A DNA stretch of 64,000 bases from positions 64,777-128,776 of the forward strand of contig JAGCOW010000042.1 of NCBI GenBank assembly GCA_017642535.1, read 5' to 3'. Positions 1,334-33,524 of the stretch are shown piece after piece (positions within the stretch are counted from its first letter, which is position 1; every line of letters begins with the position of its first letter). Under the pieces are notes generated by a model. The model made no database searches and was not told the DNA's origin. It saw only the letters and a program-made list of their open reading frames with translations. Position numbers and translations under genes: made by a program. Origin of the DNA: Bacteroidales bacterium (GTDB lineage: Bacteria; Bacteroidota; Bacteroidia; Bacteroidales; UBA1715).

Positions 1334-2032
1334 ATGAAAAAGGTATTGATGAATCTTGCTCTATGTGCGGCAGCAATGTTTGGAGCAATGTCAGTTTCGG
1401 CACAAGAAGAAAAATCTCCTTGCGAAACACAATGTAATGTTGGTTTAGAAATTAAATCATCAGAAATCTGGAGAGGTCTTCAAATAGGTTCAGGACCTGC
1501 TTTTAAACCTATGTTTGCAATAAATGCTGGTAGTTTCTCTATCGGTGCAGAAGGTACAATGTGTACAGGCGAAGATTTAGGTTTCGAAAGCAATATCTAC
1601 GCAAAATACCGTTTCCCATTCGATTTGACTCTTGAATTGATTGACTACTATGCAGGTGGTAACTGGTTGGGAGTTAACTTCGACAATATTGCAAAAACTC
1701 ACACGATTGAACCAGCTATCCGTTACAACTACGGAAAATTACAGTTCTACATTGCTTTGAACTTTATGGAAAACAAAGAAGTTGATTTCTATGGTCACCT
1801 TGCTTACGACTTTGATATTTTCAAAGTAACTCTTGGCGGTGGTGATGGTATTTATACAACAAGTCCAGTATGGGGTAATGGTGGTGACTTCGCTATCTGC
1901 AACATCGGTTTGGAGAAAGAAACTGCTATTCAAATCAACGACAGATTCGCATTGCCAATCACTGGTGGTGTTGCTTTGAACCCTGCTATTGAACGTTTCT
2001 ACGCTTACGCTGCTATTAAATTTGCAAAATAA
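1334..2032 (+). CDS. hypothetical secreted / outer-membrane beta-barrel-like protein
   Basis: ORF 1235-2032. The internal ATG at 1334 gives a signal peptide, MKKVLMNLALCAAAMFGAMSVSAQ. The sequence shows an alternating aromatic/Gly-rich pattern. No family was recognised. Confidence 0.6.
   Translation: MKKVLMNLALCAAAMFGAMSVSAQEEKSPCETQCNVGLEIKSSEIWRGLQIGSGPAFKPMFAINAGSFSIGAEGTMCTGEDLGFESNIYAKYRFPFDLTLELIDYYAGGNWLGVNFDNIAKTHTIEPAIRYNYGKLQFYIALNFMENKEVDFYGHLAYDFDIFKVTLGGGDGIYTTSPVWGNGGDFAICNIGLEKETAIQINDRFALPITGGVALNPAIERFYAYAAIKFAK
2017..2024 (+). promoter_or_regulatory. candidate -7 box (TAAATTTG) upstream of leader ORF
   Basis: Matches TAnnTTTG, lies inside the 3' end of the upstream CDS, and is 20 nt before the leader ATG. 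Confidence 0.3.
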
Positions 2033-2043
2033 TAGATAAAGCA

Positions 2044-2106
2044 ATGAAACTTACAAAGACATACTCGTTTTACTTTTACTTCTTTTACTTTTATTTTAAA
2101 AGATAA
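2044..2106 (+). CDS. putative Phe/Tyr-rich leader peptide (20 aa) of the aromatic operon
   Basis: Hand translation: atg aaa ctt aca aag aca tac tcg ttt tac ttt tac ttc ttt tac ttt tat ttt aaa aga taa = MKLTKTYSFYFYFFYFYFKR. It contains 6 Phe and 5 Tyr. It is below the 60-aa cutoff of the ORF track. Confidence 0.6.
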   Translation: MKLTKTYSFYFYFFYFYFKR

Positions 2107-2153
2107 AAGCGAGGTCACGTGTATGTAATTAATGATGTAAAAATTGTACAAAC

Positions 2154-2185
2154 GAAGCCTCGATGAATGTCGGGGCTTTTTTTTT
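2154..2185 (+). terminator. intrinsic terminator-like hairpin (attenuator) immediately upstream of pheA
   Basis: Stem 2154-2162 (gaagcctcg) pairs with 2171-2179 (cggggcttt), including G-U pairs. The loop is 8 nt, followed by a run of nine T (2177-2185). It ends 13 nt before the pheA ATG. Confidence 0.6.
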
Positions 2186-2198
2186 GAATGATATAAAT

Positions 2199-3035
2199 AT
2201 GAAAATTGCAATTCAAGGTGTGAACGGAGCATTCCACGAAATAGCCGCCAAAGAATATTTCGGCGACGACATTACAACGCTCAACTGCAACCAGTTCAAG
2301 GATTTGTTCTCGGCTGTGGAGCACGGCACTGCCGATTACGGCATTTGTGCCATAGAAAACACAATAGCGGGCAGCATCCTCGAAAATTATTTGTTGCTTA
2401 AACGCTCAAAGTTGAAAGTCATCGGTGAGATTTCACTGCACATCACGCAAAATCTTATGGTGTTGCCAGGTACGAAAATCGAAGACATTCACGAGGTGTA
2501 TTCTCATCCGATAGCAATCCAGCAAAGCAAGGATTTTCTCGACAACTATCCTGATATGAAAATCATCAACTGGTCCGACACGGCTTCGAGCGCACAAAAA
2601 ATCAAAGAAGAAAAACTTACCAACGCAGCAGCAATCGCAAGTGAATATGCTGCCGATTTGTACGGTCTTGAGATTTTGGCAAGAAACATTCAGACGCATA
2701 AGAAAAACTACACGCGTTTCCTTGCCCTGAGCCGTATTCCTGTTGATAGTGAGGAAAACAACAAAGCATCGATTTGCTTTGAACTTACGCACCAACCCGG
2801 CTCGTTGGTCGATGTGCTTGCAGAATTCAAGAAACATGAAATAAATCTTACCAAAATCCAGTCGCTTCCTATTTTGGGAAGTCCGTATCAATATACGTTC
2901 TACGTGGATTTGGAATGGAAGGACAAAAACAAGTTTGACGCCGCTTTGGCAGCAGTGTTGAAGGTGGTTTCAAACCTTTCTGTCTTGGGAGAATATAAAC
3001 GTGATGAAAAATTCAATTACGAAATTTTGAACTAA
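2199..3035 (+). CDS. pheA: prephenate dehydratase
   Basis: MKIAIQGVNGAFHEIAAKEYFG..., an NYTRF motif, and a C-terminal ACT-like domain (LTKIQSLP). The start was moved from 2163 to 2199 because the longer ORF would read through the terminator hairpin. Confidence 0.9.
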   Translation: MKIAIQGVNGAFHEIAAKEYFGDDITTLNCNQFKDLFSAVEHGTADYGICAIENTIAGSILENYLLLKRSKLKVIGEISLHITQNLMVLPGTKIEDIHEVYSHPIAIQQSKDFLDNYPDMKIINWSDTASSAQKIKEEKLTNAAAIASEYAADLYGLEILARNIQTHKKNYTRFLALSRIPVDSEENNKASICFELTHQPGSLVDVLAEFKKHEINLTKIQSLPILGSPYQYTFYVDLEWKDKNKFDAALAAVLKVVSNLSVLGEYKRDEKFNYEILN

Positions 3036-3036
3036 T

Positions 3037-3879
3037 ATGAATATTGTAGTTATAGGAACAGGTTTGATTGGCGGCTCAATGGCGCTTTCCGCCCGTGGAT
3101 TTGAGACAAAAATCATTGGCGTTGATGCTAACGAGGAAAACCTGAAAAAAGCGATAGAACTTGGTATTGTCGATATGGCAATGCCACTTGAGCAAGCCGT
3201 TTTAGTTGCTGATTTGATTATTATCTCAATACCTGTGGATGCGGCACGCGAAATGCTTCCGTCGATTCTCGACAATATGCGCGACGATGCCGTTGTAATC
3301 GACACTGGTTCGACAAAAGCAGGCATTTGTGGCAAAGTACGCAATCACCCTCGCCGAGGAAATTTCGTGGCTTCGCACCCTATGGCTGGAACGGAATTTT
3401 CGGGACCGACAGCCGCATTTGCTGGTTTGTTCAAAGACAAAAAAGCAATCATTTGTGAAAAAGAATTGAGTAGCGATTTTGCTCTCAAACGTGCATTGAC
3501 ACTATATAAGCTTTTGGGAATGAGTGTGTTGTATATGTCGGCCGAAGACCACGACAAACACATTGCCTACGTGTCGCACCTTACGCACGTGATTGCATAC
3601 GCATTGAGTTTGACGGTTCAGGAAATTGAGAAAAACGAGGAAAAGAAAATCTTCGAAATGGCAGGCAGTGGTTTCGCTTCAACCGTACGAATCGCAAAAA
3701 GTTCGTCGGCAATGTGGACGCCGATTTTCCGCCAAAACGCCCGTTTCCTGACAGATTCAATCGACAAATACATTGATGTATTGAATCATTTCAAACAATT
3801 GATTGCCGAAGACAGAACAAAAGAATTGTTTGACGAAATAAAAGAAGCAAATAGAATTAAAGACGTATTAAAAGGATAA
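3037..3879 (+). CDS. tyrA: prephenate dehydrogenase
   Basis: MNIVVIGTGLIGGSMALS (Rossmann motif) and SHPMAG. The ATG lies 1 nt after the pheA stop. Confidence 0.9.
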   Translation: MNIVVIGTGLIGGSMALSARGFETKIIGVDANEENLKKAIELGIVDMAMPLEQAVLVADLIIISIPVDAAREMLPSILDNMRDDAVVIDTGSTKAGICGKVRNHPRRGNFVASHPMAGTEFSGPTAAFAGLFKDKKAIICEKELSSDFALKRALTLYKLLGMSVLYMSAEDHDKHIAYVSHLTHVIAYALSLTVQEIEKNEEKKIFEMAGSGFASTVRIAKSSSAMWTPIFRQNARFLTDSIDKYIDVLNHFKQLIAEDRTKELFDEIKEANRIKDVLKG

Positions 3880-3882
3880 ATA

Positions 3883-3910
3883 GTAGAGACGTGCCATGGC
3901 GCGTCTCTAC
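3883..3910. repeat. GTAGAGACG...CGTCTCTAC palindromic hairpin, copy A
   Basis: gtagagacg tgccatggcg cgtctctac, with perfect 9-bp outer arms, 3 nt after the tyrA stop. Confidence 0.8.
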
Positions 3911-3939
3911 AGAAAAACAAGGAAAAAATAATAAAATAT

Positions 3940-5013
3940 ATGAAAGTAGATAGTATAGAAACATGGGGCATCAACGCAAAGCGTCCTGTAATCATTGCAG
4001 GCCCATGTAGTGCAGAATCAGAAGAGCAGGTAATGGAAACTGCCAGAGGATTGAAAGAACTTGGTGTGCAAATTTTCCGTGCGGGTATCTGGAAACCGCG
4101 TACACGTCCAAATTCGTTCGAAGGCGTTGGTTTTGAAGGATTGGCGTGGTTGAAACGTGTTAAAAAAGAATATGGAATGCTTACGGCAACCGAAGTTGCA
4201 TGTCAGAAACACGTGAACGAAGCCCTCAAAATGGGCGTTGACATTCTTTGGATTGGAGCTCGTACGACGGTGAATCCATTTGCCGTACAAGAAATTGCCA
4301 ACGAGTTGAAGGGCGTTGACATTCCAGTGCTTATCAAGAATCCTATCAATCCCGACTTGGAATTGTGGATTGGCGCTTTCGAGCGAATCGCCGGTGCTGG
4401 AATCACGAAACTTGGTGCTATTCACCGTGGATTTTCATCGTTCGAAAAAATAAAATATCGCAACGCTCCGCAATGGCAGATGGCGATAGAATTACACCGC
4501 CGTATCCCTGATTTGCCAATTATCTGCGACCCGAGCCACATGGCAGGAAAACGCGAATATGTTCAGGAATTGGCACAAAAATCATTGGATTTGGGTGCAA
4601 ACGGTTTGATAATTGAATCACACTGCAATCCCGACGTGGCATTGAGCGACTCGAAGCAACAATTCACGCCGAAAGATTTAGGCGTGATTCTAAATAATTT
4701 GGTTGTTCGTGAACGTGGAACGAATAACGCTGATTACAAAGAAGTTATGAGCGAACTTCGTGCAAAAATCGACGTGCTTGACGAAATGTTGCTCGACACG
4801 CTTTCGAAACGTATGGACGTGTGCCGCGAAATGGGTAAGACGAAAAAGGAAAACAATGTGCAAGTATTCCAGTCGCATCGTTGGGACCAAATCTTGACCG
4901 ACAAGCTTGCTCGTGGTGCTGAAAAAGGGTTGAGCAACGAGTTGATTGAAAAAACTTTTAAAGCAATTCACCAAGAATCAATCAATATTCAAACGGAAAT
5001 TGTAAATTCGTAG
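3940..5013 (+). CDS. bifunctional 3-deoxy-7-phosphoheptulonate (DAHP) synthase / chorismate mutase
   Basis: The N-terminus is of the KDO8P-synthase-like type-I-beta DAHPS kind (IIAGPCSAESEEQ...IFRAGIWKPRTRP). A C-terminal ~90 aa AroQ-like chorismate mutase segment follows (LRAKIDVLDEMLLDTLSKRMDVCREMG...). Confidence 0.85.
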   Translation: MKVDSIETWGINAKRPVIIAGPCSAESEEQVMETARGLKELGVQIFRAGIWKPRTRPNSFEGVGFEGLAWLKRVKKEYGMLTATEVACQKHVNEALKMGVDILWIGARTTVNPFAVQEIANELKGVDIPVLIKNPINPDLELWIGAFERIAGAGITKLGAIHRGFSSFEKIKYRNAPQWQMAIELHRRIPDLPIICDPSHMAGKREYVQELAQKSLDLGANGLIIESHCNPDVALSDSKQQFTPKDLGVILNNLVVRERGTNNADYKEVMSELRAKIDVLDEMLLDTLSKRMDVCREMGKTKKENNVQVFQSHRWDQILTDKLARGAEKGLSNELIEKTFKAIHQESINIQTEIVNS

Positions 5014-5037
5014 CCGAAAAATGGCAAAGACAGAGTT

Positions 5038-6072
5038 ATGAAGAAACTCGAGATAAAAAGTTCAATAGGGTCATCGGAAATATTTGTGGGAGAATCTCTT
5101 GCAAATGTTTCCCGATACCTTCCCAAAGGTCGAAAAATAGCTATCATAACCGATCCAGCTATTCGTTCTTTGTATGGAAATCAGTTCCCCAAAGTTGATT
5201 TAATCCTTGAAATTCCACAAGGCGAGGCAAATAAAAATCTACAATCGTTGGATGCGATTTTTGAGCAACTTATCAATGCGGAGTTTGATAGATCGTCGTT
5301 TATACTGGGCATTGGTGGTGGAATCGTGTGCGACATGAGCGGTTTCATAGCAACCATTTTTATGCGCGGCATTGAATTCGGCTTTGTCTCTACAACCTTG
5401 TTGAGTCAGGTGGATGCAAGTGTTGGAGGGAAAAACGGCGTGAATTTCCAAGGATATAAGAATATGATTGGCACATTCAGTTTGCCCAAATTTGTGATTT
5501 GCGAACTGAATATATTGAAATCTCTTCCAGAGCGGGAACTTTTGAGTGGCATGGGCGAAGTGGTGAAACACGGAGCGATTGCTTCTGAATGGTTGTTTTC
5601 ATACATTGAAAATCACGTGGCTGATTTGAAGAAGTATTCAATGGAAGCGTTGGAAACTTTTGTGTATGAATCGATTGTGATAAAATCTTCTGTCGTTAGC
5701 GGCGATGTGAAAGAGTCTGGTCAACGACGGATATTTAATTTTGGTCATACGTTTGGGCACGCTATTGAAAAAATCACCAAAATGCCTCACGGTTGTGCGG
5801 TAAGTGTGGGAATGGTGATGGCAGCAAAACTTTCTGTCATAAAAGGGAAAATGAAACAGACGGAATGCGACCGATTGGTGAATCTTTTGAAAAAAATTGG
5901 TCTGCCTACATCAGCCGAAATCAATCCCGACGAGTTGCTTGACGTGATGAAATGCGACAAGAAACGCGAAGGTGACAGCGTTCATTTTGTGTATCTGACG
6001 GGCATTGGAGCGTGTAGCGTTGAAAAAATAACATATACTGAATTAGCTTCTTTGATACGTGATTTGTGTTAG
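5038..6072 (+). CDS. aroB: 3-dehydroquinate synthase
   Basis: GIGGGIVCDMSGFIA...LLSQVDASVGGKNGVNF...GHTFGHAIE. Confidence 0.9.
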   Translation: MKKLEIKSSIGSSEIFVGESLANVSRYLPKGRKIAIITDPAIRSLYGNQFPKVDLILEIPQGEANKNLQSLDAIFEQLINAEFDRSSFILGIGGGIVCDMSGFIATIFMRGIEFGFVSTTLLSQVDASVGGKNGVNFQGYKNMIGTFSLPKFVICELNILKSLPERELLSGMGEVVKHGAIASEWLFSYIENHVADLKKYSMEALETFVYESIVIKSSVVSGDVKESGQRRIFNFGHTFGHAIEKITKMPHGCAVSVGMVMAAKLSVIKGKMKQTECDRLVNLLKKIGLPTSAEINPDELLDVMKCDKKREGDSVHFVYLTGIGACSVEKITYTELASLIRDLC

Positions 6073-6691
6073 TGTTATAGAAAAGGATATTTCTAAAATC
6101 ATTTCTGTGGCTCATTCTGCCGAAATGGCCGAAATCCGTATTGACTTGTGTGGGATGGATGAAAAAGCTGTCGCTGACGTTTTTTCTCAAATTACAGTTC
6201 CGACAATTGCCACGTGTCGTCCAGAATTTTGTGATGACGTAAAGCGTGCAAAATTGCTGAAGACGGCGATTCTTTCGGGTGCAACTTATGTTGATGTGGA
6301 AATAGAATCACAGGAAAATTTCAAAAAAGAAATCTTGAACTTTGCTCACGAAAAGGGTTGCAAGTGTATTATTTCGTATCACAATTACGAGGAAACACCT
6401 CCGAGACAAAAATTGCAAGAAATAATTGATACTTGTTTTTCGCAAGGTGCCGACGTTGCTAAAATTGCGACAATGGCACGGTCAAAACGTGATGCTGCGA
6501 GAGTATTGTCACTATACGAGTCAAACGACAACATTGTTGCCTTGGCGATGGGCGAAGAAGGGAAAATCTCTCGCGTAGCTTGTCTTTATTTGGGTAGCCC
6601 ATTTTCATTTGCCGCCATTGACGAGACGCACGCCTCGGCCAATGGACAACTTACCGTGGCACAGATGAAGGAGTTACGACATTGCTTGTGA
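6059..6691 (+). CDS. aroD: type I 3-dehydroquinate dehydratase
   Basis: ICVSVIEK...AEIRIDL...VALAMGEEGKISRV. The GTG start overlaps the aroB end by 14 nt. Confidence 0.8.
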   Translation: MICVSVIEKDISKIISVAHSAEMAEIRIDLCGMDEKAVADVFSQITVPTIATCRPEFCDDVKRAKLLKTAILSGATYVDVEIESQENFKKEILNFAHEKGCKCIISYHNYEETPPRQKLQEIIDTCFSQGADVAKIATMARSKRDAARVLSLYESNDNIVALAMGEEGKISRVACLYLGSPFSFAAIDETHASANGQLTVAQMKELRHCL

Positions 6692-6716
6692 TTTCTTTCC
6701 CAACGAATCGATAGGG

Positions 6717-6742
6717 GAGAAAACATTTTCTCATATTTTTTC
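6717..6742 (+). terminator. weak terminator-like hairpin after aroD
   Basis: gagaaa-acat-tttctc followed by atatttttt. The stem is only 6 bp and AT-rich. Confidence 0.3.
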
Positions 6743-6743
6743 T

Positions 6744-6751
6744 TACTTTTG
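6744..6751 (+). promoter_or_regulatory. candidate -7 box (TACTTTTG)
   Basis: Matches TAnnTTTG, 45 nt upstream of ATG 6796. Confidence 0.3.
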
Positions 6752-6795
6752 ACACGAACAGCGAAGGCATTGTTCCAAAACGAAAATTGAAACTT

Positions 6796-7857
6796 ATGGC
6801 AGACTCAAATTTTGTACTTTCCGACTTGCTTCGGAACAACATTCGAAATATCACTCCGTATTCAACGGCACGCGATGAATATCAAGGTGTTGCGTTGGTA
6901 AACCTTGATGCAAACGAAAATTCATTCGGCTCGGTTGGTAATGGAAATTACAACCGTTATCCTGACCCGTATCAGTTTGAATTAAAACAAGTTGTATCAA
7001 AAATCAAAAACATTCCTGTTGACCAGATATTTCTTGGAGGCAGTGGTAGCGACGAAGGAATAGGATTGCTTTACACTGCATTCTGCGAACCGGGCATCGA
7101 CAATGCGATTGTGTGTCCTCCAACCTACGGTATGTATGGCGTTTCGGCCGAAATACACAATACACCGTGCAAACAAGTTCCTTTAACTGCTGATTTTCAG
7201 TTACAAGCCGACAAGGTGATTGCTGCAATGGACAGTCACACGAAACTCACGTGGATTTGTTCTCCGAACAATCCTTCGGGAAATTCTTACGATCGAGAAG
7301 CTGTACGAAAAGTGATTGAAGCGGCTAAAGGCATTGTGGTGATTGACGAGGCATATATCGATTTCAGTAGCGAGAAATCTTGGAAAGAAGAACTCCCGAA
7401 ATATCCGAACTTGGTAGTGTTGCAGACGTTTTCAAAGGCGTGGGGTCTTGCAAACTGTCGTTTGGGAATGATGTTCGCATCAAAGGGAATTATCGCTGTA
7501 ATCAACAAAATCAAATTGCCGTACAATATGAACGGTATGACGCAAAAATATGCCTGTGAAATCCTGTCAAAATATGCGTCGCAAAAAGATGATTATGTGA
7601 AGGAAATCCTTGCAGAACGAGAGAAACTGATTCCTGCTTTGCAAGCAATTTCGTTGGTGAAAAAAGTTTTTCCAAGCGATGCGAATTTCCTTTTAGTTAA
7701 GATTGATAATGCTCACGATGTATATAACTACTTGGTTAAGGAAGGCATTATTGTACGCGATCGCACTAAAGTGACCCTTTGCGAAGATTGCCTGCGAATT
7801 ACAGTGGGAACAACAAAGGAGAACGAGTTGCTGATAGAAAAGCTAAAACAATTGTAA
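6796..7857 (+). CDS. hisC: HisC-family (histidinol-phosphate/aromatic) aminotransferase
   Basis: YPDP, SPNNPSG, DEAYIDF, and QTFSKAWGLANCRLG (PLP-binding lysine). The track start at 6787 is TTG. The first ATG is at 6796. Confidence 0.85.
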   Translation: MADSNFVLSDLLRNNIRNITPYSTARDEYQGVALVNLDANENSFGSVGNGNYNRYPDPYQFELKQVVSKIKNIPVDQIFLGGSGSDEGIGLLYTAFCEPGIDNAIVCPPTYGMYGVSAEIHNTPCKQVPLTADFQLQADKVIAAMDSHTKLTWICSPNNPSGNSYDREAVRKVIEAAKGIVVIDEAYIDFSSEKSWKEELPKYPNLVVLQTFSKAWGLANCRLGMMFASKGIIAVINKIKLPYNMNGMTQKYACEILSKYASQKDDYVKEILAEREKLIPALQAISLVKKVFPSDANFLLVKIDNAHDVYNYLVKEGIIVRDRTKVTLCEDCLRITVGTTKENELLIEKLKQL

Positions 7858-8459: not shown

Positions 8460-11400
8460 ATGAGAAAATTCTTATCTTTTTGCGTATTTGCGTTGTTTGC
8501 AACGGCCTCATTCTCACAGTATTCCATCAAGATGGAACGAATGGAAGCAGATGGTCAAATCTATTATCAAGGTGAATTACCTCTCAAAAGTTATGTTGAT
8601 GATGCGGAAGATGGTTTTCTTCCCGCATTGAATACGGCGTATGTTGTTGATTTAAAAAATCTTACGACAAATACCCAAATGGGGAAATTACAAGTAAACA
8701 TCGTCGATAGAGCAGAAAGCAATGGATGGTGGACAGAAGTAAATCCTACGTATAAAGTTTTAGGAGAAGATATTACACCTTCCGATGCAATTACGCAAGA
8801 GGCAAAGATTTTCGTTATGAATTTAGGAGATGAGCCAGAAGCCGGAAAATATACCTTGATTTTCCACGCTTGGGGCGTTTATGAGAACGTTGATGAGGTG
8901 ACTCTGACTATCGAGGATTTGTCGATGGCGACGTTGGTTGACATGTATTTGGAGGAAACTTCTTTAGAGTTGTCAACGGGTGAAACAAGCGATGTTAAGT
9001 CGCTGGTTCGTTATAGTCTATTTGAGGAAACTGAAACAGACAAATATCCGTTGTTTAGTAGCTCAAACCCCAAGGTTGTTGAGATAGACGAAAATGGAGT
9101 GATAACGGCTGTTGCTCCAGGCACTGCCACTATCACAATCACGACATTGGGTAAGTTGCTGACAGCTATTGATGAATATGAAGCTGGGGCATTGCTGACT
9201 CGCGAAAACGAACTGCAAGTAACGGTTAGCTTAAAACCAAATGTCGTTTTCGCATGGAATAGTTATGGAACCGACGTAGAAGGCGTTGGCGAAGAAGGCG
9301 TAAGCGATTATTGGCAATACAGCAATACCGAGAAAATTCCTGACGCTCTCGACGCCTTTGAATCGGGCTTGGCATCTACGTGGACTGCAAGCGAAGGCGA
9401 TTCGTTCACCATTCACATCAAAGGTGTTTCAAAAGTAACAGGAACCTTGGATTTGGTTCTTGTTGACCAACGGCAAGAAGTGAACAACTGGGGTGAAATG
9501 AGTGATTTTGAAAGAAGTATTGCCATTACAGAAGGAGAAGAATTTGATATTACCAAAACAATGGAAATCAAGTATTTCCAAAATGCACAAGGTGTTTCGT
9601 ATGCAATGCCCGATTTTATTATGGAATTTTCTCCGTCAAACGGTAGTGAATATGGTAAGGATAACACAGTGGATTTCTCGTTGACTACGTTCGATGTCTC
9701 TTACACTCCTGCTGTGGAAATTGCTACTCCAATCGTAGAAAATACGGAATATAAATATTGTAAAAATGCCGAAGCGGTTGCGTTAGAGGTGACGGCAACT
9801 GAAAACGGAGTCCTTGTTTGGTATGATTCAAACTACAACGTCTTGGAATCGGCTCCAACGCCTTCAACCGAGAATGTTGGAACGCAAGTATTTTACGTTT
9901 CGCAAATAATTGACGAGGTTGAAAGTGCGAAAAAAGCAATCAATGTTACTATAAACGACCTTCCGTCGGTGTATATTTCAGGAAATACGTCGGTTAAGGC
10001 CGAAGAATCGTTTACCTTGACTGCCGTTGCTTACTCAAGTTTTGGCATAGATTCGTATTCGTGGACAATTGGCGACGAAGCAAGTGAGGAAACGTCGGAA
10101 AATGTTACAACAAGTCTTTCTTCTTCAACAAAAGTGGCTGTGACGGTTACTGACAATGAATCTTGTTCGTCAACTGCGGAACAATACGTAACGGTATTCT
10201 CTGCAGAACCTCCTGTAGCAGTCTTTGCAGAGGATGAATATACCGTTGAGGTTGGTGAAACAATAACCATCACTCCTTCATATACGGCAGTGGACGATTT
10301 TAGCAATCTTTCGTTCTTGCTCAAAGAATATAACGGCTGTGTTCAATTTGAAACAAAAATAGATGGCACTTGCGCCGTATCAGGTTTGGCTGAAGGTAGC
10401 GATTCCTTGATATTGAATCTGACTTATTCAAACGGAGTAGATACATATAAATTAAATGATACCTGTAAAATCATTGTTGTTCCGTCACAAAAGGTTCCAC
10501 AACCTAAGGTGAACAAGACGGAATATGTATATTGTCAGTACGACGAACCAGAAGCGTTCGCTATTGATGTGACCGAAGGAACAACATTACAATGGTATGA
10601 CAAGACCAACGGCGAGTATGTCCGTTTATACAACGACCCAGTTGTTTCAACCGATTATGCTTACAATGCAGTTTATGCCGTTTCACAAGTTCGTGACGGG
10701 TTGGAAAGCGCGAAGGTTGAAATTTCAATCGTTGTGAACGCACGTCCGGCGTTGGAAGTTACCTATCCTAAGATTGCGTATGTTGATTCCAACATTGAGA
10801 TTCAGGCACAATCGTCAGTTGCAAGTTCGTATGTGTGGTCAAACGGATATGAGGAGACTACGCCGACAACAGAAAGTGCCATTTCTGTTTCGTTCTCACA
10901 TGCGGGAACGCACAATTTTACGGTAATAGCATCTGCCAACGGCTGTGATGCGAAAAAAGAGATTTCGCTTATCACAAAAGTATTGCCGTCTATTTCGTTT
11001 GAAAAGGAATCATATTCCGTATTCACGGGCGAAACCATCTCGGTAGCTCCTCTTTTCGACAATATGATTGCAGGTGACGATGCACAATGGACGGTGGCTG
11101 ATGAAACAATCGCTTCGGTTGAAAATCAGGAAAACGGAACTATCAAGGCAGAGGGAATCGGTTCAACGGTTGTAACTTATTCTACAACGTACACCGACCC
11201 AGATACAAAATACACGAAAAAATATTCTGCTTCGTACACACTGCAAGTGACGGAGTTTGTTGAATCTATCGTGTGTGAAAATGTTTCGGTTGAAATGTTT
11301 ACGGGCGAACGATTCTTCGTTGACGCTGTAGTGCATTCGTTGGAAGGGAAAAAAGATTATCACCTCGAAACGTCAAGTCAAGATTCTTTGAAGATTGACA

Positions 11401-14400
11401 TTGTTGACAAGATGATTACCGCTGTAGAAGCTGGTGAAGTTGTTGTAAACGTGATTTCCGACAATAATGCTTCGATTCGTACTGCCCTCAATATTACGAT
11501 AAAACCATTCATTTCGGCAAAAGAGATTTCATTGCCAAAACAAGTTACTATTCTTGTCGGTGCCGATACTACGTTGGTTGCTTCGGTGATTCCTGCGAAT
11601 GCAAGTTATGCTGAAGTTTCATTCTTGGAAAAAGACGACGACATTGTAACAGTAACCGCCGACGGCAAGATTGTCGGCAAGACAGTGGGTACGTCAATTG
11701 TTAGTGCATCGACCAAAGAAGGTTTGCAAGCACAAACCATGGTTTATGTAACTTCGAGCGACGAGGAAATTGTGAAAATCCGTTTGAACAACGGCGACGA
11801 GGCAATGTACTTGAAAGTTGGTGAATCAAAAACAGTTTCGTGCCAAGTTTCTCCAACGACCATCAAGGCGAACGATTTGGTATGGGCTTCGGGAAATCCT
11901 GAAATCGCTACGGTTTCACCAAGTGGAATCGTAACTGCGGTGAAAGAAGGCGAACTCTTCTTGCATATCTCTTACAAAACGTCGATAAACGAGACAATCA
12001 AAGTGTTTGTGACAAAATCAAATGCTCCAACAATTTCGTTCATCCCGACGGTGGCTATGCAACAGCAAGGTGCTTCTGCCACTATTGATTTAAGTTCGTA
12101 TGTAACTGACGATGTGACGGAATTTAACGAATTGCAACTATCTGCTTTGGATAACGAAAATATTGATGTTACAATTCAAGAAGGAATAGCAAAATTGACG
12201 TTGAAGAACGCAACATTTGTCGGCAACACGTCAGTTACTATTTCGGCTACCGACGAGGAAAATCTAACGACAAGTCGTTCAATTGACGTGCAAGTCGCTA
12301 TGAAAGCAAACGAAGCACCTGTGGTTGCTATTGACACCATCGTGGTTCCGTTTGGAAAATATACGCAAATCGTGATTGCCGATATGGTGAAAGACGATTA
12401 TACGGCTTCGGCAGACTTGGATTTTGATTTTGAAGAAGGCGAAAATCTTATTGTAAAGAAAATAAAAAACACGTCGTTGAGAATTACTGCTCTTGAGGAC
12501 GATTGGTCTGGCACGGATTATTTGACAGTGACATTTACCGATGCGGAAAATTTAGTTACGGAAAAACAAATCGTAGTGATTGTGCAAGAAGCTGAAAACC
12601 AAGCTCCTGTAATTGCCGAGATTCCGCAACAAAATGAAATCGGTACGGAATTGTTCTCAAACATTGATTTATCTCAATATGTTTCAGACGATTACACTTC
12701 TCCGTCAAATATAGTTTGGTCGGCTACAACTTCTGAAAATGTGAGTGTGAAATTCTCGGGCTGTTATGCCGAAATTGCAGACTTGAACGAGTATTGGCGT
12801 GGTGCCGAAGTGATTACATTTACAGCAATGGACCAGGGCGGTTTGACATCTTCTATTGACGTCACATTCTATCGTATGACCGAAACGACTGAGACAGAAC
12901 AAGAATTTGGCTGGTATGGCAAACCGACGGTAAAAATTATCACTTCTCGCTATTATGGCAATCCAGGAGATGAATTTACCCTCATTGGTACATTCTACGG
13001 TTCGGAATGTTCTGGCGAATGGATAATCGACGGTGTGGAATTGAGTGATCCATATGCGTTAATTCAAACGTTGAAATTCCCAGAAACAGGTTTTTATGAT
13101 GTAACATTCAAGGTAATGTACGGCGAAGGCGAAATTACCGAAGTAGGTGAAAATCTTGTCGTTTATGGTATAGAGCAACGTAATGCTGGTATTTGTATTG
13201 GTTCTAACACAACATTGACGGCAACCGACGGTGTTGATTCATACGTTTGGAGTACCAATGAAACATCGCAATCAATTGAAATTGCTCCTGAAACAACGCA
13301 GACATACGTTCTAACAATGCACAAAGGTCTTACTACAATGACGGACTCGGTAACTGTTCGCGTTTCGGTTCCTGTAAGCTTGAGAGAAGATTCGGTAATG
13401 TGTGCGGGAACGAAATATGAATTGGTTGCACAAGGCGAATATGAATCGTATTCGTGGAATACGGGCGAAACGACACAATCTATCGTTATTCCTGCTGCCG
13501 TAGCCAATTACACGGTAACGACGCAAGACGACCTGGGTTGCGAAAGCTCGGCAACATTCAAGGTAACTGCCGTAAACGATTTGCCTGCAATCAACCTTGG
13601 TGATGATAAAACCGTGTGCGACAAAGTCATAACGACACTTGATGCCGGTGCAGGTTTCGTATATGCTTGGGACATAACGAAATACGATGGTTCAAAGGTT
13701 AATTCGGCAGAACAAAGTATCAGTTTGGATTCTTCGGCATACGTCACTATAAAAATCGTTGATAACAATCAATGTGAGAACTTCGATACCATTACGGTTA
13801 CATACACGTATCCATATCCTGAAGAAATCGGAATCATTACCTATAGCGAATCAAGCAAGAACCTGATTGTTGCTTGGGAACGTACTATCGACGTGAATAC
13901 GGTAAGTTATCAAGTAGAACGTAAGATTAACGACACGCAATGGGAAAAGGTTGGCGACGCTGTTCCGTTCACCGATTTCGGAATCGTGGTTGACGAAGCA
14001 ACTAATTTCGAAGGTCGTGCCTACAATTATCGTCTGTTGACAACCGACGGTTGTAACAACACGGCAACGAGCGGCGTATATCGTTCGTCATTCATTCAGT
14101 CGGTAAAAACACAAGATGGAAATTATGGCGTAAACTGGTGGACGTACAAGTCACCTCGTCAAGGAAATGTTGTGGGTAGTTATCTGCTACGAAAAACCGA
14201 CCCGTCATTGCATGCCGATGGGCTTATAGAAGGCTATGAAGTAATTGATAATTTCTCATCGGAAGACGACTTTATTGGCTGGACCGACACCGAAGGTTCG
14301 TTGAAGCCTGGAGATATGGTTCGTGTGGCATTTGCATTAGACGAAACGGTATATGAAAATGCTGTGAAAGACACCGATGGCAATGTTGTTGAACTTCAAA

Positions 14401-14729
14401 CCAAAGCTGAATCTGGACCATTCTCTATCGCTATCAGTAATATTGCTGAGGTTGAAAATACCGATGCTATTGAAAGTCTGTTCCCTGCCGACGTGGCTGT
14501 ATATCCTACGATAGTGAAAGATGTAATTAACATTGCCCTTGTTGCATACGAGTATAATAATTTCACGATAGAGGTGCTTGACGCAAACGGCAAGGTCGTT
14601 GCAAAAACACAAACTGGCGATGTTGTGAAAGCAGTAGTGCAAATTCCTGCAAGCGAACTCTCGCAAGGTATTTATACAGTGAAATTGTCAGCTGACGATG
14701 CAGTGAAGACAGTAAAGGTTGTGAAATAA
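8460..14729 (+). CDS. giant (2089 aa) cell-surface adhesin-like protein with Ig-like repeats, FN3-like domain and T9SS C-terminal sorting domain
   Basis: The signal peptide is MRKFLSFCVFALFATASFSQ. Repeated Big_2-like segments are present (e.g. ITAVAPGTATITITT). Two xYxYCxxxxA...WY...YYVSQ...ESAK Ig-like repeats occur. Three tandem ~95-aa DLSxYVxDD repeats occur. The tail ...VAVYPTIVKDVINIAL...GIYTVKL...KTVKVVK is typical of T9SS type A CTDs. Confidence 0.9.
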   Translation: MRKFLSFCVFALFATASFSQYSIKMERMEADGQIYYQGELPLKSYVDDAEDGFLPALNTAYVVDLKNLTTNTQMGKLQVNIVDRAESNGWWTEVNPTYKVLGEDITPSDAITQEAKIFVMNLGDEPEAGKYTLIFHAWGVYENVDEVTLTIEDLSMATLVDMYLEETSLELSTGETSDVKSLVRYSLFEETETDKYPLFSSSNPKVVEIDENGVITAVAPGTATITITTLGKLLTAIDEYEAGALLTRENELQVTVSLKPNVVFAWNSYGTDVEGVGEEGVSDYWQYSNTEKIPDALDAFESGLASTWTASEGDSFTIHIKGVSKVTGTLDLVLVDQRQEVNNWGEMSDFERSIAITEGEEFDITKTMEIKYFQNAQGVSYAMPDFIMEFSPSNGSEYGKDNTVDFSLTTFDVSYTPAVEIATPIVENTEYKYCKNAEAVALEVTATENGVLVWYDSNYNVLESAPTPSTENVGTQVFYVSQIIDEVESAKKAINVTINDLPSVYISGNTSVKAEESFTLTAVAYSSFGIDSYSWTIGDEASEETSENVTTSLSSSTKVAVTVTDNESCSSTAEQYVTVFSAEPPVAVFAEDEYTVEVGETITITPSYTAVDDFSNLSFLLKEYNGCVQFETKIDGTCAVSGLAEGSDSLILNLTYSNGVDTYKLNDTCKIIVVPSQKVPQPKVNKTEYVYCQYDEPEAFAIDVTEGTTLQWYDKTNGEYVRLYNDPVVSTDYAYNAVYAVSQVRDGLESAKVEISIVVNARPALEVTYPKIAYVDSNIEIQAQSSVASSYVWSNGYEETTPTTESAISVSFSHAGTHNFTVIASANGCDAKKEISLITKVLPSISFEKESYSVFTGETISVAPLFDNMIAGDDAQWTVADETIASVENQENGTIKAEGIGSTVVTYSTTYTDPDTKYTKKYSASYTLQVTEFVESIVCENVSVEMFTGERFFVDAVVHSLEGKKDYHLETSSQDSLKIDIVDKMITAVEAGEVVVNVISDNNASIRTALNITIKPFISAKEISLPKQVTILVGADTTLVASVIPANASYAEVSFLEKDDDIVTVTADGKIVGKTVGTSIVSASTKEGLQAQTMVYVTSSDEEIVKIRLNNGDEAMYLKVGESKTVSCQVSPTTIKANDLVWASGNPEIATVSPSGIVTAVKEGELFLHISYKTSINETIKVFVTKSNAPTISFIPTVAMQQQGASATIDLSSYVTDDVTEFNELQLSALDNENIDVTIQEGIAKLTLKNATFVGNTSVTISATDEENLTTSRSIDVQVAMKANEAPVVAIDTIVVPFGKYTQIVIADMVKDDYTASADLDFDFEEGENLIVKKIKNTSLRITALEDDWSGTDYLTVTFTDAENLVTEKQIVVIVQEAENQAPVIAEIPQQNEIGTELFSNIDLSQYVSDDYTSPSNIVWSATTSENVSVKFSGCYAEIADLNEYWRGAEVITFTAMDQGGLTSSIDVTFYRMTETTETEQEFGWYGKPTVKIITSRYYGNPGDEFTLIGTFYGSECSGEWIIDGVELSDPYALIQTLKFPETGFYDVTFKVMYGEGEITEVGENLVVYGIEQRNAGICIGSNTTLTATDGVDSYVWSTNETSQSIEIAPETTQTYVLTMHKGLTTMTDSVTVRVSVPVSLREDSVMCAGTKYELVAQGEYESYSWNTGETTQSIVIPAAVANYTVTTQDDLGCESSATFKVTAVNDLPAINLGDDKTVCDKVITTLDAGAGFVYAWDITKYDGSKVNSAEQSISLDSSAYVTIKIVDNNQCENFDTITVTYTYPYPEEIGIITYSESSKNLIVAWERTIDVNTVSYQVERKINDTQWEKVGDAVPFTDFGIVVDEATNFEGRAYNYRLLTTDGCNNTATSGVYRSSFIQSVKTQDGNYGVNWWTYKSPRQGNVVGSYLLRKTDPSLHADGLIEGYEVIDNFSSEDDFIGWTDTEGSLKPGDMVRVAFALDETVYENAVKDTDGNVVELQTKAESGPFSIAISNIAEVENTDAIESLFPADVAVYPTIVKDVINIALVAYEYNNFTIEVLDANGKVVAKTQTGDVVKAVVQIPASELSQGIYTVKLSADDAVKTVKVVK

Positions 14730-33451: not shown

Positions 33452-33524
33452 TGGAGAGGGGCGGGATCGAACCGCCGACGCCAGGATTTTCAGTCCTGTG
33501 CTCTACCGACTGAGCTACCACTCC
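33452..33524 (-). tRNA. tRNA-Phe (anticodon GAA)
   Basis: Hand-folded cloverleaf of 73 nt: GGAGTGG TA GCTC AGTCGGTA GAGC A CAGGA CTGAAAA TCCTG GCGTC GGCGG TTCGATC CCGCC CCTCTCC A. There is one U5-U68 mismatch in the acceptor stem, and CCA is not encoded. Confidence 0.9.

Follow-up and report, generated by a model that had tools for sequence, protein, structure and literature searches.

A predicted Phe/Tyr leader-peptide attenuator precedes the pheA operon of a Bacteroidales bacterium and is conserved in its relatives

Organization of the pheA locus

The window analyzed here, a 64-kb stretch of DNA from the metagenome-assembled genome of an uncultured rumen-type Bacteroidales bacterium, carries a series of genes for the synthesis of Phe and Tyr on its plus strand. 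Based on Pfam and NCBIfam matches, these are pheA (prephenate dehydratase, 2199-3035), tyrA (prephenate dehydrogenase, 3037-3879), a DAHP synthase/chorismate mutase gene (3940-5013), aroB (5038-6072), and aroD (6059-6691), followed by a gene for a hisC-type class I/II aminotransferase (6787-7857). The Pfam matches confirm the aromatic genes named in the initial annotation of this DNA. Because the genes are tightly spaced, pheA through the aminotransferase gene are presumably co-transcribed, and we presume that 2199-7857 forms an operon under the control of the leader described below. The order pheA-tyrA-DAHPS(-aroB) is kept in relatives.

An outer-membrane-like gene (1235-2032) precedes the leader and is adjacent to it in seven related loci; its stop codon lies at 2030-2032. 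The leader ORF (2044-2106, plus strand) starts with an ATG at 2044 and consists of 20 codons and a TAA (2104-2106), encoding the peptide MKLTKTYSFYFYFFYFYFKR. Read directly from the sequence, this peptide contains 6 Phe and 5 Tyr, with all 11 aromatic residues falling within a 12-residue stretch: the putative regulatory codons (2062-2097) comprise a Tyr codon at 2062-2064 and an uninterrupted FYFYFFYFYF run at 2068-2097. A Bacteroidota-type -7 promoter box of the form TAnnTTTG, TAAATTTG, is located at 2017-2024 on the same strand, within the final codons of the preceding ORF, and the leader ATG follows 20 nt past its last G. Transcription would start a few bases past the box, near 2030. The region before the ATG is A-rich and has no Shine-Dalgarno motif, as expected for Bacteroidota (PMC6847099). 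The positions first given for the mini-ORF, the box, the T tract, and the pheA start all held on reading the sequence again.

A covariance model built from relatives scored the leader element at 122 bits, its sole match within the 64-kb window. A scan of the window for mini-ORFs rich in a single amino acid, with a terminator downstream, revealed no other leader-peptide attenuator. A minus-strand candidate at 38913-38860 (MNRFNFNVFFCYNFCEK) was dismissed as chance, as it lies antisense within a 421-aa ORF.

Predicted competing hairpins in the leader transcript

Past the leader and before pheA, RNAfold and a terminator scan placed an intrinsic terminator with an 11-bp stem (2154-2164 with 2169-2179) and a 4-nt loop, a folding energy of -15.6 kcal/mol, and a z of -4.4. 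The 9-bp stem and 8-nt loop proposed initially were correct and are refined by this result. Its 3' arm (2169-2179) merges into a tract of nine T (2177-2185), and together they make up segment 4 (2169-2185); the pheA ATG at 2199 lies 13 nt further on. Public pheA gene models run 12 codons too far in the 5' direction, into the loop of this terminator.

When the terminator 3' arm is omitted from the fold, an alternative helix appears. Segment 2 (2110-2127, with the core CGAGGU at 2110-2115), the 5' arm of a predicted anti-terminator, pairs with the 3' arm at 2147-2162 through 2110-2115/2157-2162, 2118-2120/2152-2154, and 2124-2127/2147-2150, with an energy of -12.7 kcal/mol and a z of -2.75. The pairing of the 2110-2125 region with the terminator 5' arm suggested in the initial annotation was therefore recovered, and the energy comparison that it had proposed gives -15.6 kcal/mol for the terminator versus -12.7 kcal/mol for the anti-terminator. 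Segment 3 (2147-2164) is common to both helices, contributing the anti-terminator 3' arm (2147-2162) and the terminator 5' arm (2154-2164). Segment 2 begins 15 nt downstream of the first nucleotide of the final Phe codon and 6 nt downstream of that of the stop codon. Segment 1 (2059-2076), within the leader coding region, is the predicted partner of segment 2 in a protector or pause hairpin, which is present in the minimum free energy fold of 2044-2128 (-16.3 kcal/mol, z -2.7).

Conservation of the aromatic leader and its promoter box

In 51 of the 79 regions upstream of pheA from other Bacteroidota species, we found an ATG-initiated mini-ORF in which 8 or more residues of a 12-residue stretch are aromatic. 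Only one of 2800 other 300-nt windows from the related loci, and none of the 79 reverse complements, contained such a stretch, and in dinucleotide shuffles of the pheA-upstream regions the aromatic maximum averaged 2.6 and never exceeded 4.0. Depending on the threshold, conservation of the leader extends to 51-61 of the 79 loci; overall, roughly 60 of the 80 species-level loci, which come from Bacteroidales, Odoribacter, Alistipes, Paludibacter, Parapedobacter, Fulvivirga, and Ignavibacteria/Kapaibacterium, have an F/Y/W-rich ATG mini-ORF before pheA. The covariance model built from the relatives of the window likewise finds elements throughout the phylum, nearly always just 5' of pheA.

The related leaders begin with an in-frame ATG (GTG in loci L072 and L080) a median of five codons ahead of the aromatic run, and their stops are in the same frame. 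Both synonymous codons are used for each aromatic residue (TTT 192, TTC 69, TAC 107, and TAT 92), and the insertions and deletions that separate the leaders are whole codons that keep the frame. As far as sequence variation can tell, the in-frame start, the synonymous variation, and the in-frame indels are signs that the mini-ORF is translated.

The promoter box is also conserved. Of the 52 unique related elements, 31 have a TAnnTTTG motif in the 80 nt ahead of the leader ATG (background frequency, 0.086 per 80 nt), and the distance from its last G to the ATG is mostly 19-28 nt. Among relatives that share the upstream gene of the window, the box is mostly degenerate: it reads TAAATTCG in L003, L005, and L017, L006 has only a TAATTTTG 76 nt upstream, and L007 has no promoter box near the leader. 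Some transcription may therefore come in from the upstream gene. That gene is missing in L001 and L002, the nearest relatives with 97% PheA identity, and in most of the other lineages; these loci nonetheless retain leader, terminator, and anti-terminator and have their own TAnnTTTG box.

Conservation and covariation of the RNA helices

In 53 related loci, corresponding to 52 unique elements, the leader is separated from pheA by an intrinsic terminator. In all 52, a segment past the aromatic run can pair with five or more bases in the 5' arm of the terminator, and the resulting anti-terminator helices have a median z of -3.5, with z < -2 in 38 of 52. The arm sequences vary between lineages, and their complementarity is maintained: the pairing energy of the anti-terminator segment is -13.0 kcal/mol with the terminator arm of the same element versus -7.9 kcal/mol with arms from foreign lineages, and none of 2000 permutations was as good. 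The alignment of pheA-upstream regions suggested in the initial annotation shows a conserved F/Y mini-ORF and compensatory changes in both helices. In a MAFFT alignment of close relatives, the terminator and the anti-terminator are each 92% paired, compared with 26-67% when the partners are slid. In a phylum-wide covariance-model alignment, 89% of the anti-terminator cells are paired versus 64% in shuffles, with 102 versus 29 double-sided changes and compensatory change in seven of eight pairs; these shuffle counts are not probabilities, because the alignment is fitted to the structure under test and the sequences are related.

The distance from the last aromatic codon to the start of the anti-terminator arm is nearly constant, with a median of 13.5 nt and an interquartile range of 12-15 nt across the 52 unique elements. 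It is independent of the stop codon, which may lie before the arm or past its start, and it corresponds to about one ribosome footprint.

The hairpin between segments 1 and 2 is less uniform. Its own pairing is stronger than foreign pairing (-13.1 versus -9.6 kcal/mol) and z is < -2 in 25 of 52 elements, but only about half of the lineages show better pairing than shuffled leaders do, and the helix is missing in the Paludibacter group. In the close alignment, it is 77% paired, equal to shuffles, and shows no covariation. The helix ACAUAC:GUAUGU seen there was set aside, as it does not covary and a slide of two columns pairs nearly as well because of its (AC)n/(GU)n pattern.

Proposed mechanism and alternative explanations

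From these comparisons, we consider it likely, with a probability of roughly 85%, that the element is a ribosome-mediated (leader-peptide) transcription attenuator of the pheA-tyrA-aroF/CM-aroB-aroD operon. The leader, terminator, and anti-terminator scheme put forward in the initial annotation is supported by conservation, by compensatory change in both helices, by a spacing the size of a ribosome, and by the conserved TAnnTTTG. RNA polymerase would start just past the TAAATTTG box, near 2030, and a ribosome would initiate the 20-codon leader at 2044. With Phe-tRNA and Tyr-tRNA abundant, the ribosome would reach the stop codon at 2104 and mask the CGAGG arm at 2110-2115; segment 3 would consequently pair with segment 4, and the terminator so formed would make RNA polymerase release a transcript of roughly 150 nt near 2185, in the T tract. 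When charged tRNA-Phe, and probably also tRNA-Tyr, is scarce, the ribosome would stall within 2062-2097 and leave segment 2 open to pair with the emerging segment 3, which would block the terminator and allow transcription to proceed into pheA. We infer that translation is coupled to transcription and that the element responds to each amino acid.

The leader would sense Phe and probably Tyr, the latter through its Tyr codons; the amino acids that the downstream genes make are those that the leader codons specify. An attenuator of the same design could nevertheless sense Phe only, the Tyr codons being tolerated filler or keepers of a U/A-rich composition, such that Tyr supply has no effect on read-through. 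The Phe-Tyr-Phe leader of Corynebacterium glutamicum aroR would be a precedent, as its transcription is raised by Phe limitation only (reviewed in PMC11802643). Phe and Tyr codons are also interconverted by a single second-position change, and Phe is the more frequent residue in the family (238 versus 184 Tyr). However, Tyr occupies 43% of the aromatic positions, and Tyr-dominated leaders exist (L017, with FSYIYTYYYYY, L003, and L064). Moreover, the fraction of Tyr in the runs is higher in loci with a detected downstream tyrA (0.48) than in the others (0.31), values that are uncorrected for phylogeny and come from 3-kb flanks in which a distal tyrA may be missed. The fraction falls to zero in L015, a short contig in which DAHP synthase directly follows pheA, no tyrA was detected, and the run is Phe-only. 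We regard a Phe-only sensor as unlikely, although not negligible.

A dual-input attenuator invites a broader interpretation, to which we would give slightly less than even odds: a phylum-wide, uncatalogued family in which Phe and Tyr are both sensed (an OR gate), the Phe:Tyr mix is tuned to the presence of tyrA in the operon, and Odoribacter-like lineages carry two complete tandem units for a sharper response.

A different possibility is that the terminator/anti-terminator switch is driven by a factor other than the ribosome, either an RNA-binding protein acting on the UUUUAC/UUUUAU repeats, in the manner of TRAP or PyrR, or an uncharged tRNA. The aromatic run is indeed a near-regular U-rich repeat, and the same stretch has weak Rfam matches to protein-binding leaders (PyrR, 19.5 bits; L10_leader, 21 bits). 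This explanation is at odds with the in-frame start and stops, the synonymous variation at third positions, and the whole-codon indels described above, as well as with the gap of 12-15 nt, which fits the downstream reach of a ribosome. In addition, neither the window nor 20 related loci had a match at threshold to a T-box or another riboswitch family, and we consider such a factor very improbable. Finally, the hairpin might merely terminate the upstream outer-membrane-like gene, being the first terminator past 1235-2032 with none in between and that gene being adjacent in seven related loci, and the mini-ORF might be a chance frame in a T-rich spacer, but this is scarcely credible and already contradicted by conservation, namely the 51/79 versus 1/2800 enrichment of aromatic mini-ORFs and the complete elements, with their own boxes, in L001, L002, and most lineages that do not have the gene. 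The hairpin may also serve the transcript end of the upstream gene, a dual use that is compatible with attenuation of pheA.

Relation to known attenuators

The initial annotation considered a mixed Phe and Tyr leader of this kind to be an uncharacterized system. This novelty was overstated, as such leaders have precedents in Flavobacterium psychrophilum (PMC9723704), in "Bacteroides" pheL candidates mentioned in 2011 (Gurvich 2011, PMC3082878), and in aroR (PMC11802643). The closest is the 5' region of the F. psychrophilum pheA-aspC3 mRNA, THC0290_N_0195, predicted to be an F/Y/W leader-peptide attenuation element (Guerin et al. 2021, PMC9723704). Transcriptome data for this element include a mapped start, a 5' transcript of 170 nt ahead of pheA, and condition-dependent read-through, seen in minimal medium (PMC9723704). 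Like the window, it belongs to the same phylum, has pheA as the first gene, and encodes tandem aromatic residues (MNTNNTFYSNNSFYFYWNIGRDCYMVI in F. psychrophilum). Its anti-terminator arm, which begins 13 nt past the last aromatic codon versus 15 nt in the window, forms a predicted helix with the 5' arm of the terminator, behind which lies a T tract. The window displays the features of this type, likened by layout and spacing: an aromatic leader directly before pheA, an arm about 13 nt past the last aromatic codon, and a TAnnTTTG 20-30 nt before the ATG. Very probably, the two elements belong to the same family. They differ in that the translated frame of the F. psychrophilum leader crosses the anti-terminator arm (as in L001-L007), whereas the window has its stop codon 6 nt before the arm; in that the run of the window is longer and purely F/Y (11 of 12); and in that the operon of the window additionally contains tyrA, aroB, and aroD. 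The F. psychrophilum element is a transcriptome-supported prediction.

The enterobacterial pheL-pheA system has the same layout as the window, with a short ORF containing a Phe run, alternative hairpins, and an intrinsic terminator, then pheA. The pheL leader has Phe codons only and controls pheA alone, and E. coli tyrA is under TyrR. The element of the window differs from pheL-pheA in having no Shine-Dalgarno sequence and a promoter of the Bacteroidota type. Rfam Phe_leader (RF01859) matched over its full length, at 35.4 bits and an E of 1.9e-4 (311 nt), below its gathering threshold of 55. Neither here nor at 20 diverse related loci did any Rfam family reach its gathering threshold on the element.

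C. glutamicum aroR, a Phe-Tyr-Phe leader before aroF (Neshat et al. 2014, reviewed in PMC11802643), is the only characterized mixed leader, and it responds to Phe, with Tyr supply having no effect. As described there, it resembles the element of the window as a ribosome-mediated attenuator with mixed Phe/Tyr codons that controls common-pathway genes, and it differs in having three regulatory residues only (F-Y-F), in its phylum, and in its first gene. The Bacteroid-trp leader (Rfam RF01692; Weinberg et al. 2010, PMC2864571) is also a leader-peptide attenuator of an aromatic amino acid operon in Bacteroidetes. That leader carries Trp codons ahead of the trp operon, whereas the leader of the window has no Trp codon and precedes pheA and tyrA. 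RF01692 was absent among the 29 Rfam matches to the element region at E values up to 10. A weak match to the Bacteroides sRNA BTnc231 was rejected: BTnc231 lies at 5.367 Mb in B. thetaiotaomicron and the pheA cluster at about 5.107 Mb, so the match reflects terminator resemblance only. The 2004 work of Vitreschak et al. in FEMS Microbiol Lett reportedly predicted attenuators in Bacteroidetes/Chlorobi. Naville and Gautheret (2010) make no mention of Bacteroidetes, and Ryan et al. (2020) offer only a remark on sORFs "reminiscent of leader peptides." The reinitiation mechanism of Korolev (2016) operates at distances of 10-14 nt and is inapplicable to the 92-nt gap here.

Discussion

Judged by comparative analysis, the F/Y leader before pheA in Bacteroidota is a real, widely conserved, and uncatalogued form of a classical bacterial control device. 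It reveals no new principle, because the mechanism is that of the classical trp/phe attenuation scheme. It does define an RNA family that is missing from Rfam, with about 60 examples gathered and clear covariation, and it corrects public pheA gene calls by removing the 12-codon extension into the terminator loop. As a compact, portable, amino acid-responsive switch, the element has potential use in Bacteroides genetics.

If the reading as a dual-input family is true, the near-constant spacing of 12-15 nt would be direct evidence of tight transcription-translation coupling in a phylum without Shine-Dalgarno initiation. For this uncultured rumen-type Bacteroidales bacterium and most Bacteroidota, our results suggest that the Phe/Tyr and shikimate-pathway genes are probably controlled without a protein regulator.

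Organization of the pheA leader

Direct reading of positions 1800-2400 bore out all the coordinates of the initial annotation. An upstream ORF of 265 codons ends with TAA at 2030-2032, and eleven bases further on the same (+) strand a leader ORF of 20 codons, MKLTKTYSFYFYFFYFYFKR, runs from ATG 2044 to TAA 2104-2106. Its aromatic residues number 6 Phe and 5 Tyr, and all but one belong to an unbroken run of ten (2068-2097). The box TAAATTTG (2017-2024, +), which matches the Bacteroidota -7 promoter consensus TAnnTTTG, precedes the leader. Downstream, base pairing between a 5' arm, GAAGCCUCGAU (2154-2164), and a 3' arm, GUCGGGGCUUU (2169-2179), forms a terminator hairpin on the + strand with a tract of nine T (2177-2185), ahead of the pheA start at ATG 2199. 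The hairpin had been described with a 9-bp stem; the terminator scan and RNAfold retained it with a slightly longer stem of 11 bp and a 4-nt loop (-15.6 kcal/mol, z -4.4). The proposed alternative helix was recovered when 2098-2164 was folded without the 3' arm (-12.7 kcal/mol, z -2.75), with a core of CGAGGU (2110-2115) paired to GCCUCG (2157-2162), followed by two inner helices. Folded alone, the leader region (2044-2128) gave a hairpin between 2059-2076 and 2111-2126 (-16.3 kcal/mol, z -2.7). Together, these three structures provide the four-segment layout of a classical attenuator, with segment 1 in the leader coding region, segment 2 as the anti-terminator 5' arm, segment 3 common to both helices, and segment 4 as the terminator 3' arm.

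Pfam and NCBIfam assignments agree with the aromatic pathway genes initially named after the leader, all on the + strand: prephenate dehydratase (pheA, 2199-3035), prephenate dehydrogenase (tyrA, 3037-3879), DAHP synthase fused to chorismate mutase (3940-5013), aroB (5038-6072), and aroD (6059-6691). The last gene of the cluster, a hisC-type aminotransferase (6787-7857, listed with a TTG start), matches the histidinol-phosphate transaminase equivalog TIGR01141 at 352 bits against a cut-off of 277 and is probably the aromatic aminotransferase of the operon. An ORF of 2089 aa (8460-14729, +) lies beyond the cluster.

Taking the longest ORF puts the pheA start at ATG 2163, inside the terminator hairpin loop, as do some public gene calls, giving 290 instead of 278 aa (P0001, P0009). 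We rejected this start because the homologue consensus N terminus, MKIAIQG, opens at ATG 2199, making the 12 extra residues (MNVGAFFLNDIN, 2163-2198) an annotation artefact.

The aromatic mini-ORF is conserved upstream of pheA

We fetched 80 pheA loci (L001 to L080, each with its own coordinates) from species-representative genomes through alignment of PheA relatives. The closest came from rumen and gut Bacteroidales MAGs (97% identity), and the others from Salinivirgaceae, Odoribacter, Alistipes, Paludibacter, termite Prevotellaceae MAGs, Parapedobacter, Fulvivirga, Marivirga, and Ignavibacteria/Kapaibacterium. Searched blindly over the 350 nt ahead of pheA, ~60 of the 80 loci had an ATG mini-ORF rich in Phe and Tyr (and in some cases Trp), for example MKTKNTFFYFYFYFFYEGKSEAVCM, MLNTASYFAYYFFYYFSN, MINRFFTYFFFYFYFSK, and MLTRNNAYWFFGFFYFSDKSRA. 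With a threshold of at least 8 aromatic residues in 12, such a mini-ORF occurred in 51 of 79 regions upstream of pheA, compared with 1 of 2800 other 300-nt windows from the same loci, establishing the conservation that the initial annotation had left to be checked. The reverse complements of the upstream regions contained none (0/79), and dinucleotide shuffles reached a mean maximum of 2.6 aromatic residues in 12. Two further loci carry leaders opening with GTG (L072 and L080, both at 2853-2984; (M)NNNFGYTSFYFFYFFRSKAGLI), so ATG-only scans undercount the family.

Both synonymous codons are used in related leaders (TTT 192, TTC 69, TAC 107, and TAT 92), and near relatives differ by synonymous changes and whole-codon indels, indicating that the reading frame, and not just a U-rich tract, is under selection. 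The bases preceding the leader ATG are A-rich (62% A at -3), consistent with the Shine-Dalgarno-free initiation of Bacteroidota (PMC6847099).

Two competing helices are conserved with compensatory change

An intrinsic terminator was present between leader and pheA in 53 loci, representing 52 unique sequences. When each unique element was folded over the stretch between the aromatic run and the last base of the terminator 5' arm, at least 5 bases of that arm paired with an upstream segment in 52/52 (median z against shuffles -3.5; 38/52 below -2). Arm sequences diverge widely between lineages, yet complementarity is kept in triplets, such as CGAGG/CCUCG/CGGGG, GCGGGG/CCCCGC/GCGGGG, GCCGGG/CCCGGC/GCCGGG, and GAGCAGGA/UCCUGCUC/GAGCAGGA. 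In an alignment-free test, a 28-nt stretch whose offset was set relative to the last aromatic codon paired with its own terminator arm at -13.0 kcal/mol and with arms of lineages with a different core at -7.9 kcal/mol; 0 of 2000 permutations reached the observed mean. Compensatory change, which the initial annotation proposed to look for in relatives, was found in both helices.

In a MAFFT alignment of close relatives (n = 16), the terminator and the anti-terminator were each 92% paired, compared with 26-67% in slid controls. A covariance model built on this alignment gave a single match in the window (2044-2186, 122 bits) and, phylum-wide, matches just upstream of pheA except for a few weak minus-strand ones (E 0.11-0.69). 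The resulting 64-sequence alignment had 89% of cells paired (64% in shuffles), 102 cells with double-sided changes (29 in shuffles), and compensatory change in 7 of 8 pairs, but it is fitted to the structure, and we therefore give more weight to the alignment-free tests.

The 1:2 hairpin is less secure than the terminator and anti-terminator. Its complementarity is lineage-specific overall (own pairing -13.1 and foreign -9.6 kcal/mol; 0/2000 permutations), but it surpassed composition-matched shuffles (z below -2) in only 25 of 52 elements, including the window. No covariation of this hairpin was found in the close alignment, and the helix is absent in the Paludibacter group.

In the MAG of locus L016, the attenuator terminator and pheA are set apart by ~150 nt of inserted sequence (about 2860-3000) with many C/G palindromes (CCCCCCTCAAGGGGGG ... 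CCCCCTTGAGGGGGAGG); the insertion may be a small repeat element.

A constant codon-to-arm distance points to the ribosome as sensor

Across the 52 elements, the median distance to the start of the anti-terminator arm, counted from the first base of the last aromatic codon, is 13.5 nt (interquartile range 12-15 nt; 10th-90th percentile 12-18 nt). This gap is close to the downstream reach of one ribosome established by footprinting. The stop codon, in contrast, varies in position. It precedes the arm by 3-6 nt in one class, comprising the window, Salinivirgaceae, Paludibacter, and Alistipes, and lies 8-25 nt past the arm start in a second class, in which the arm is translated through. The second class includes L001-L007, whose peptides end in ...SEAVCM* (encoded by AGCGAGGCUGUGUGUAUGUAA); a 1-nt frame difference from its 97%-identical relatives gives the window its early TAA. 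We regard conservation of the codon-to-arm gap while the stop codon moves as the best single piece of evidence for a ribosome as sensor.

The anatomy fits classical ribosome-mediated attenuation and supports the mechanism first proposed, to which we assign a probability of roughly 0.85 from sequence evidence. A ribosome that has passed the aromatic run would cover or unwind segment 2, either from the stop codon 6 nt upstream or by translating through the arm, and the terminator would form. If the ribosome stalled at a Phe or Tyr codon for want of charged tRNA, its downstream reach would extend no further than the start of segment 2, leaving that segment free to capture segment 3, so that the polymerase would read through.

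Promoter and upstream gene

Of the 52 unique elements, 31 have a TAnnTTTG box in the 80 nt preceding the leader ATG (background 0.086 per 80 nt), usually with its last G 19-28 nt from the ATG. From the 20 nt in the window, transcription is predicted to begin near 2030, leaving ~14 nt of 5' leader. The window box is embedded in the final codons of the upstream ORF (1235-2032, +), which has no match in Pfam or NCBIfam; an internal start would give it a signal-peptide-like N terminus (MKKVLMNLALCAAAMFGAMSVSAQ), and this, with its C terminus ...YAYAAIKFAK, suggests a small outer-membrane protein. Synteny between this ORF and the leader holds in L003, L005-L007, L014, L017, and L018. In relatives sharing it, the leader-proximal box is degenerate or missing (TAAATTCG in L003, L005, and L017; none near the leader in L007; only TAATTTTG, 76 nt upstream, in L006), making read-in from the upstream gene possible. 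The closest relatives, L001 and L002, have another upstream neighbour and a perfect box, indicating that the element belongs to pheA and not to the upstream gene.

Amino acids probably sensed, and tandem units

That both Phe and Tyr are sensed is an inference, with evidence both ways. In favor, Tyr makes up 43% of aromatic positions in the leaders, some of which are Tyr-dominated, and its share is 0.48 with tyrA downstream compared with 0.31 without (Mann-Whitney p about 3e-4, ignoring kinship and within 3-kb flanks). In an Ignavibacteria MAG (L015, 156-283), the leader run is Phe-only (FTFTFTFFFFSFF); no tyrA was detected within its 2.6-kb contig, and it is the sole locus without detected tyrA in which DAHP synthase directly follows pheA, consistent with leader composition tracking operon content. 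Against Tyr sensing, the Phe-Tyr-Phe leader aroR of C. glutamicum responds to Phe only (PMC11802643).

In Odoribacter-like genomes, pheA is preceded by two complete tandem units of F/Y leader, anti-terminator, and terminator (for example, MKSFEKAYYFYFYFFDKK followed by MTVYFRFSNWFYFYFYFYYTKSSRKLCILF): L037 (2677-2800 and 2808-2958), L042 (2680-2810 and 2829-2971), L052 (2686-2816 and 2830-2976), L060 (2681-2806 and 2815-2967), L075 (2697-2821 and 2841-2974), and L046 (1559-1683 and 1702-1851). The covariance model matched the upstream unit in 6/6 and the pheA-proximal unit in 5/6; that of L046 was called by scanning for mini-ORFs and terminators. A sharper response would be expected from stacked attenuators.

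Relation to known systems

Rfam 15 has no family for the element, and nothing reached threshold at the element in the window and 20 diverse related loci. Phe_leader (RF01859) aligns to it over its full length, yet at 35.4 bits falls short of the threshold of 55, and Bacteroid-trp (RF01692; PMC2864571) gives no match to it at all. The only Rfam match at the gathering threshold in the window is a tRNA gene (33452-33524, -).

The initial claim of an uncharacterized kind of system was overstated, as this kind has already been predicted in the phylum. Gurvich et al. (PMC3082878) mentioned pheL candidates in "Bacteroides". Guerin et al. (PMC9723704) predicted a pheA leader in Flavobacterium psychrophilum, for which the transcription start is mapped, the 5' region measures 170 nt, and minimal medium raises expression downstream; they describe it as conserved in Flavobacteriaceae and not in Rfam. 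Their sequence, run through our pipeline, has its anti-terminator arm at +13 nt (z -4.3) and very probably belongs to the same family. The window element is therefore a further example from an uncultured Bacteroidales lineage. New here are how widely the family extends through the phylum, evidence that both helices covary, the constant codon-to-arm geometry, the division of stop codons into two classes, the association of Tyr content with tyrA, and the tandem units of Odoribacter-like genomes. The principle is textbook; the regulatory RNA family that the element represents is clean, well supported, and so far uncatalogued.
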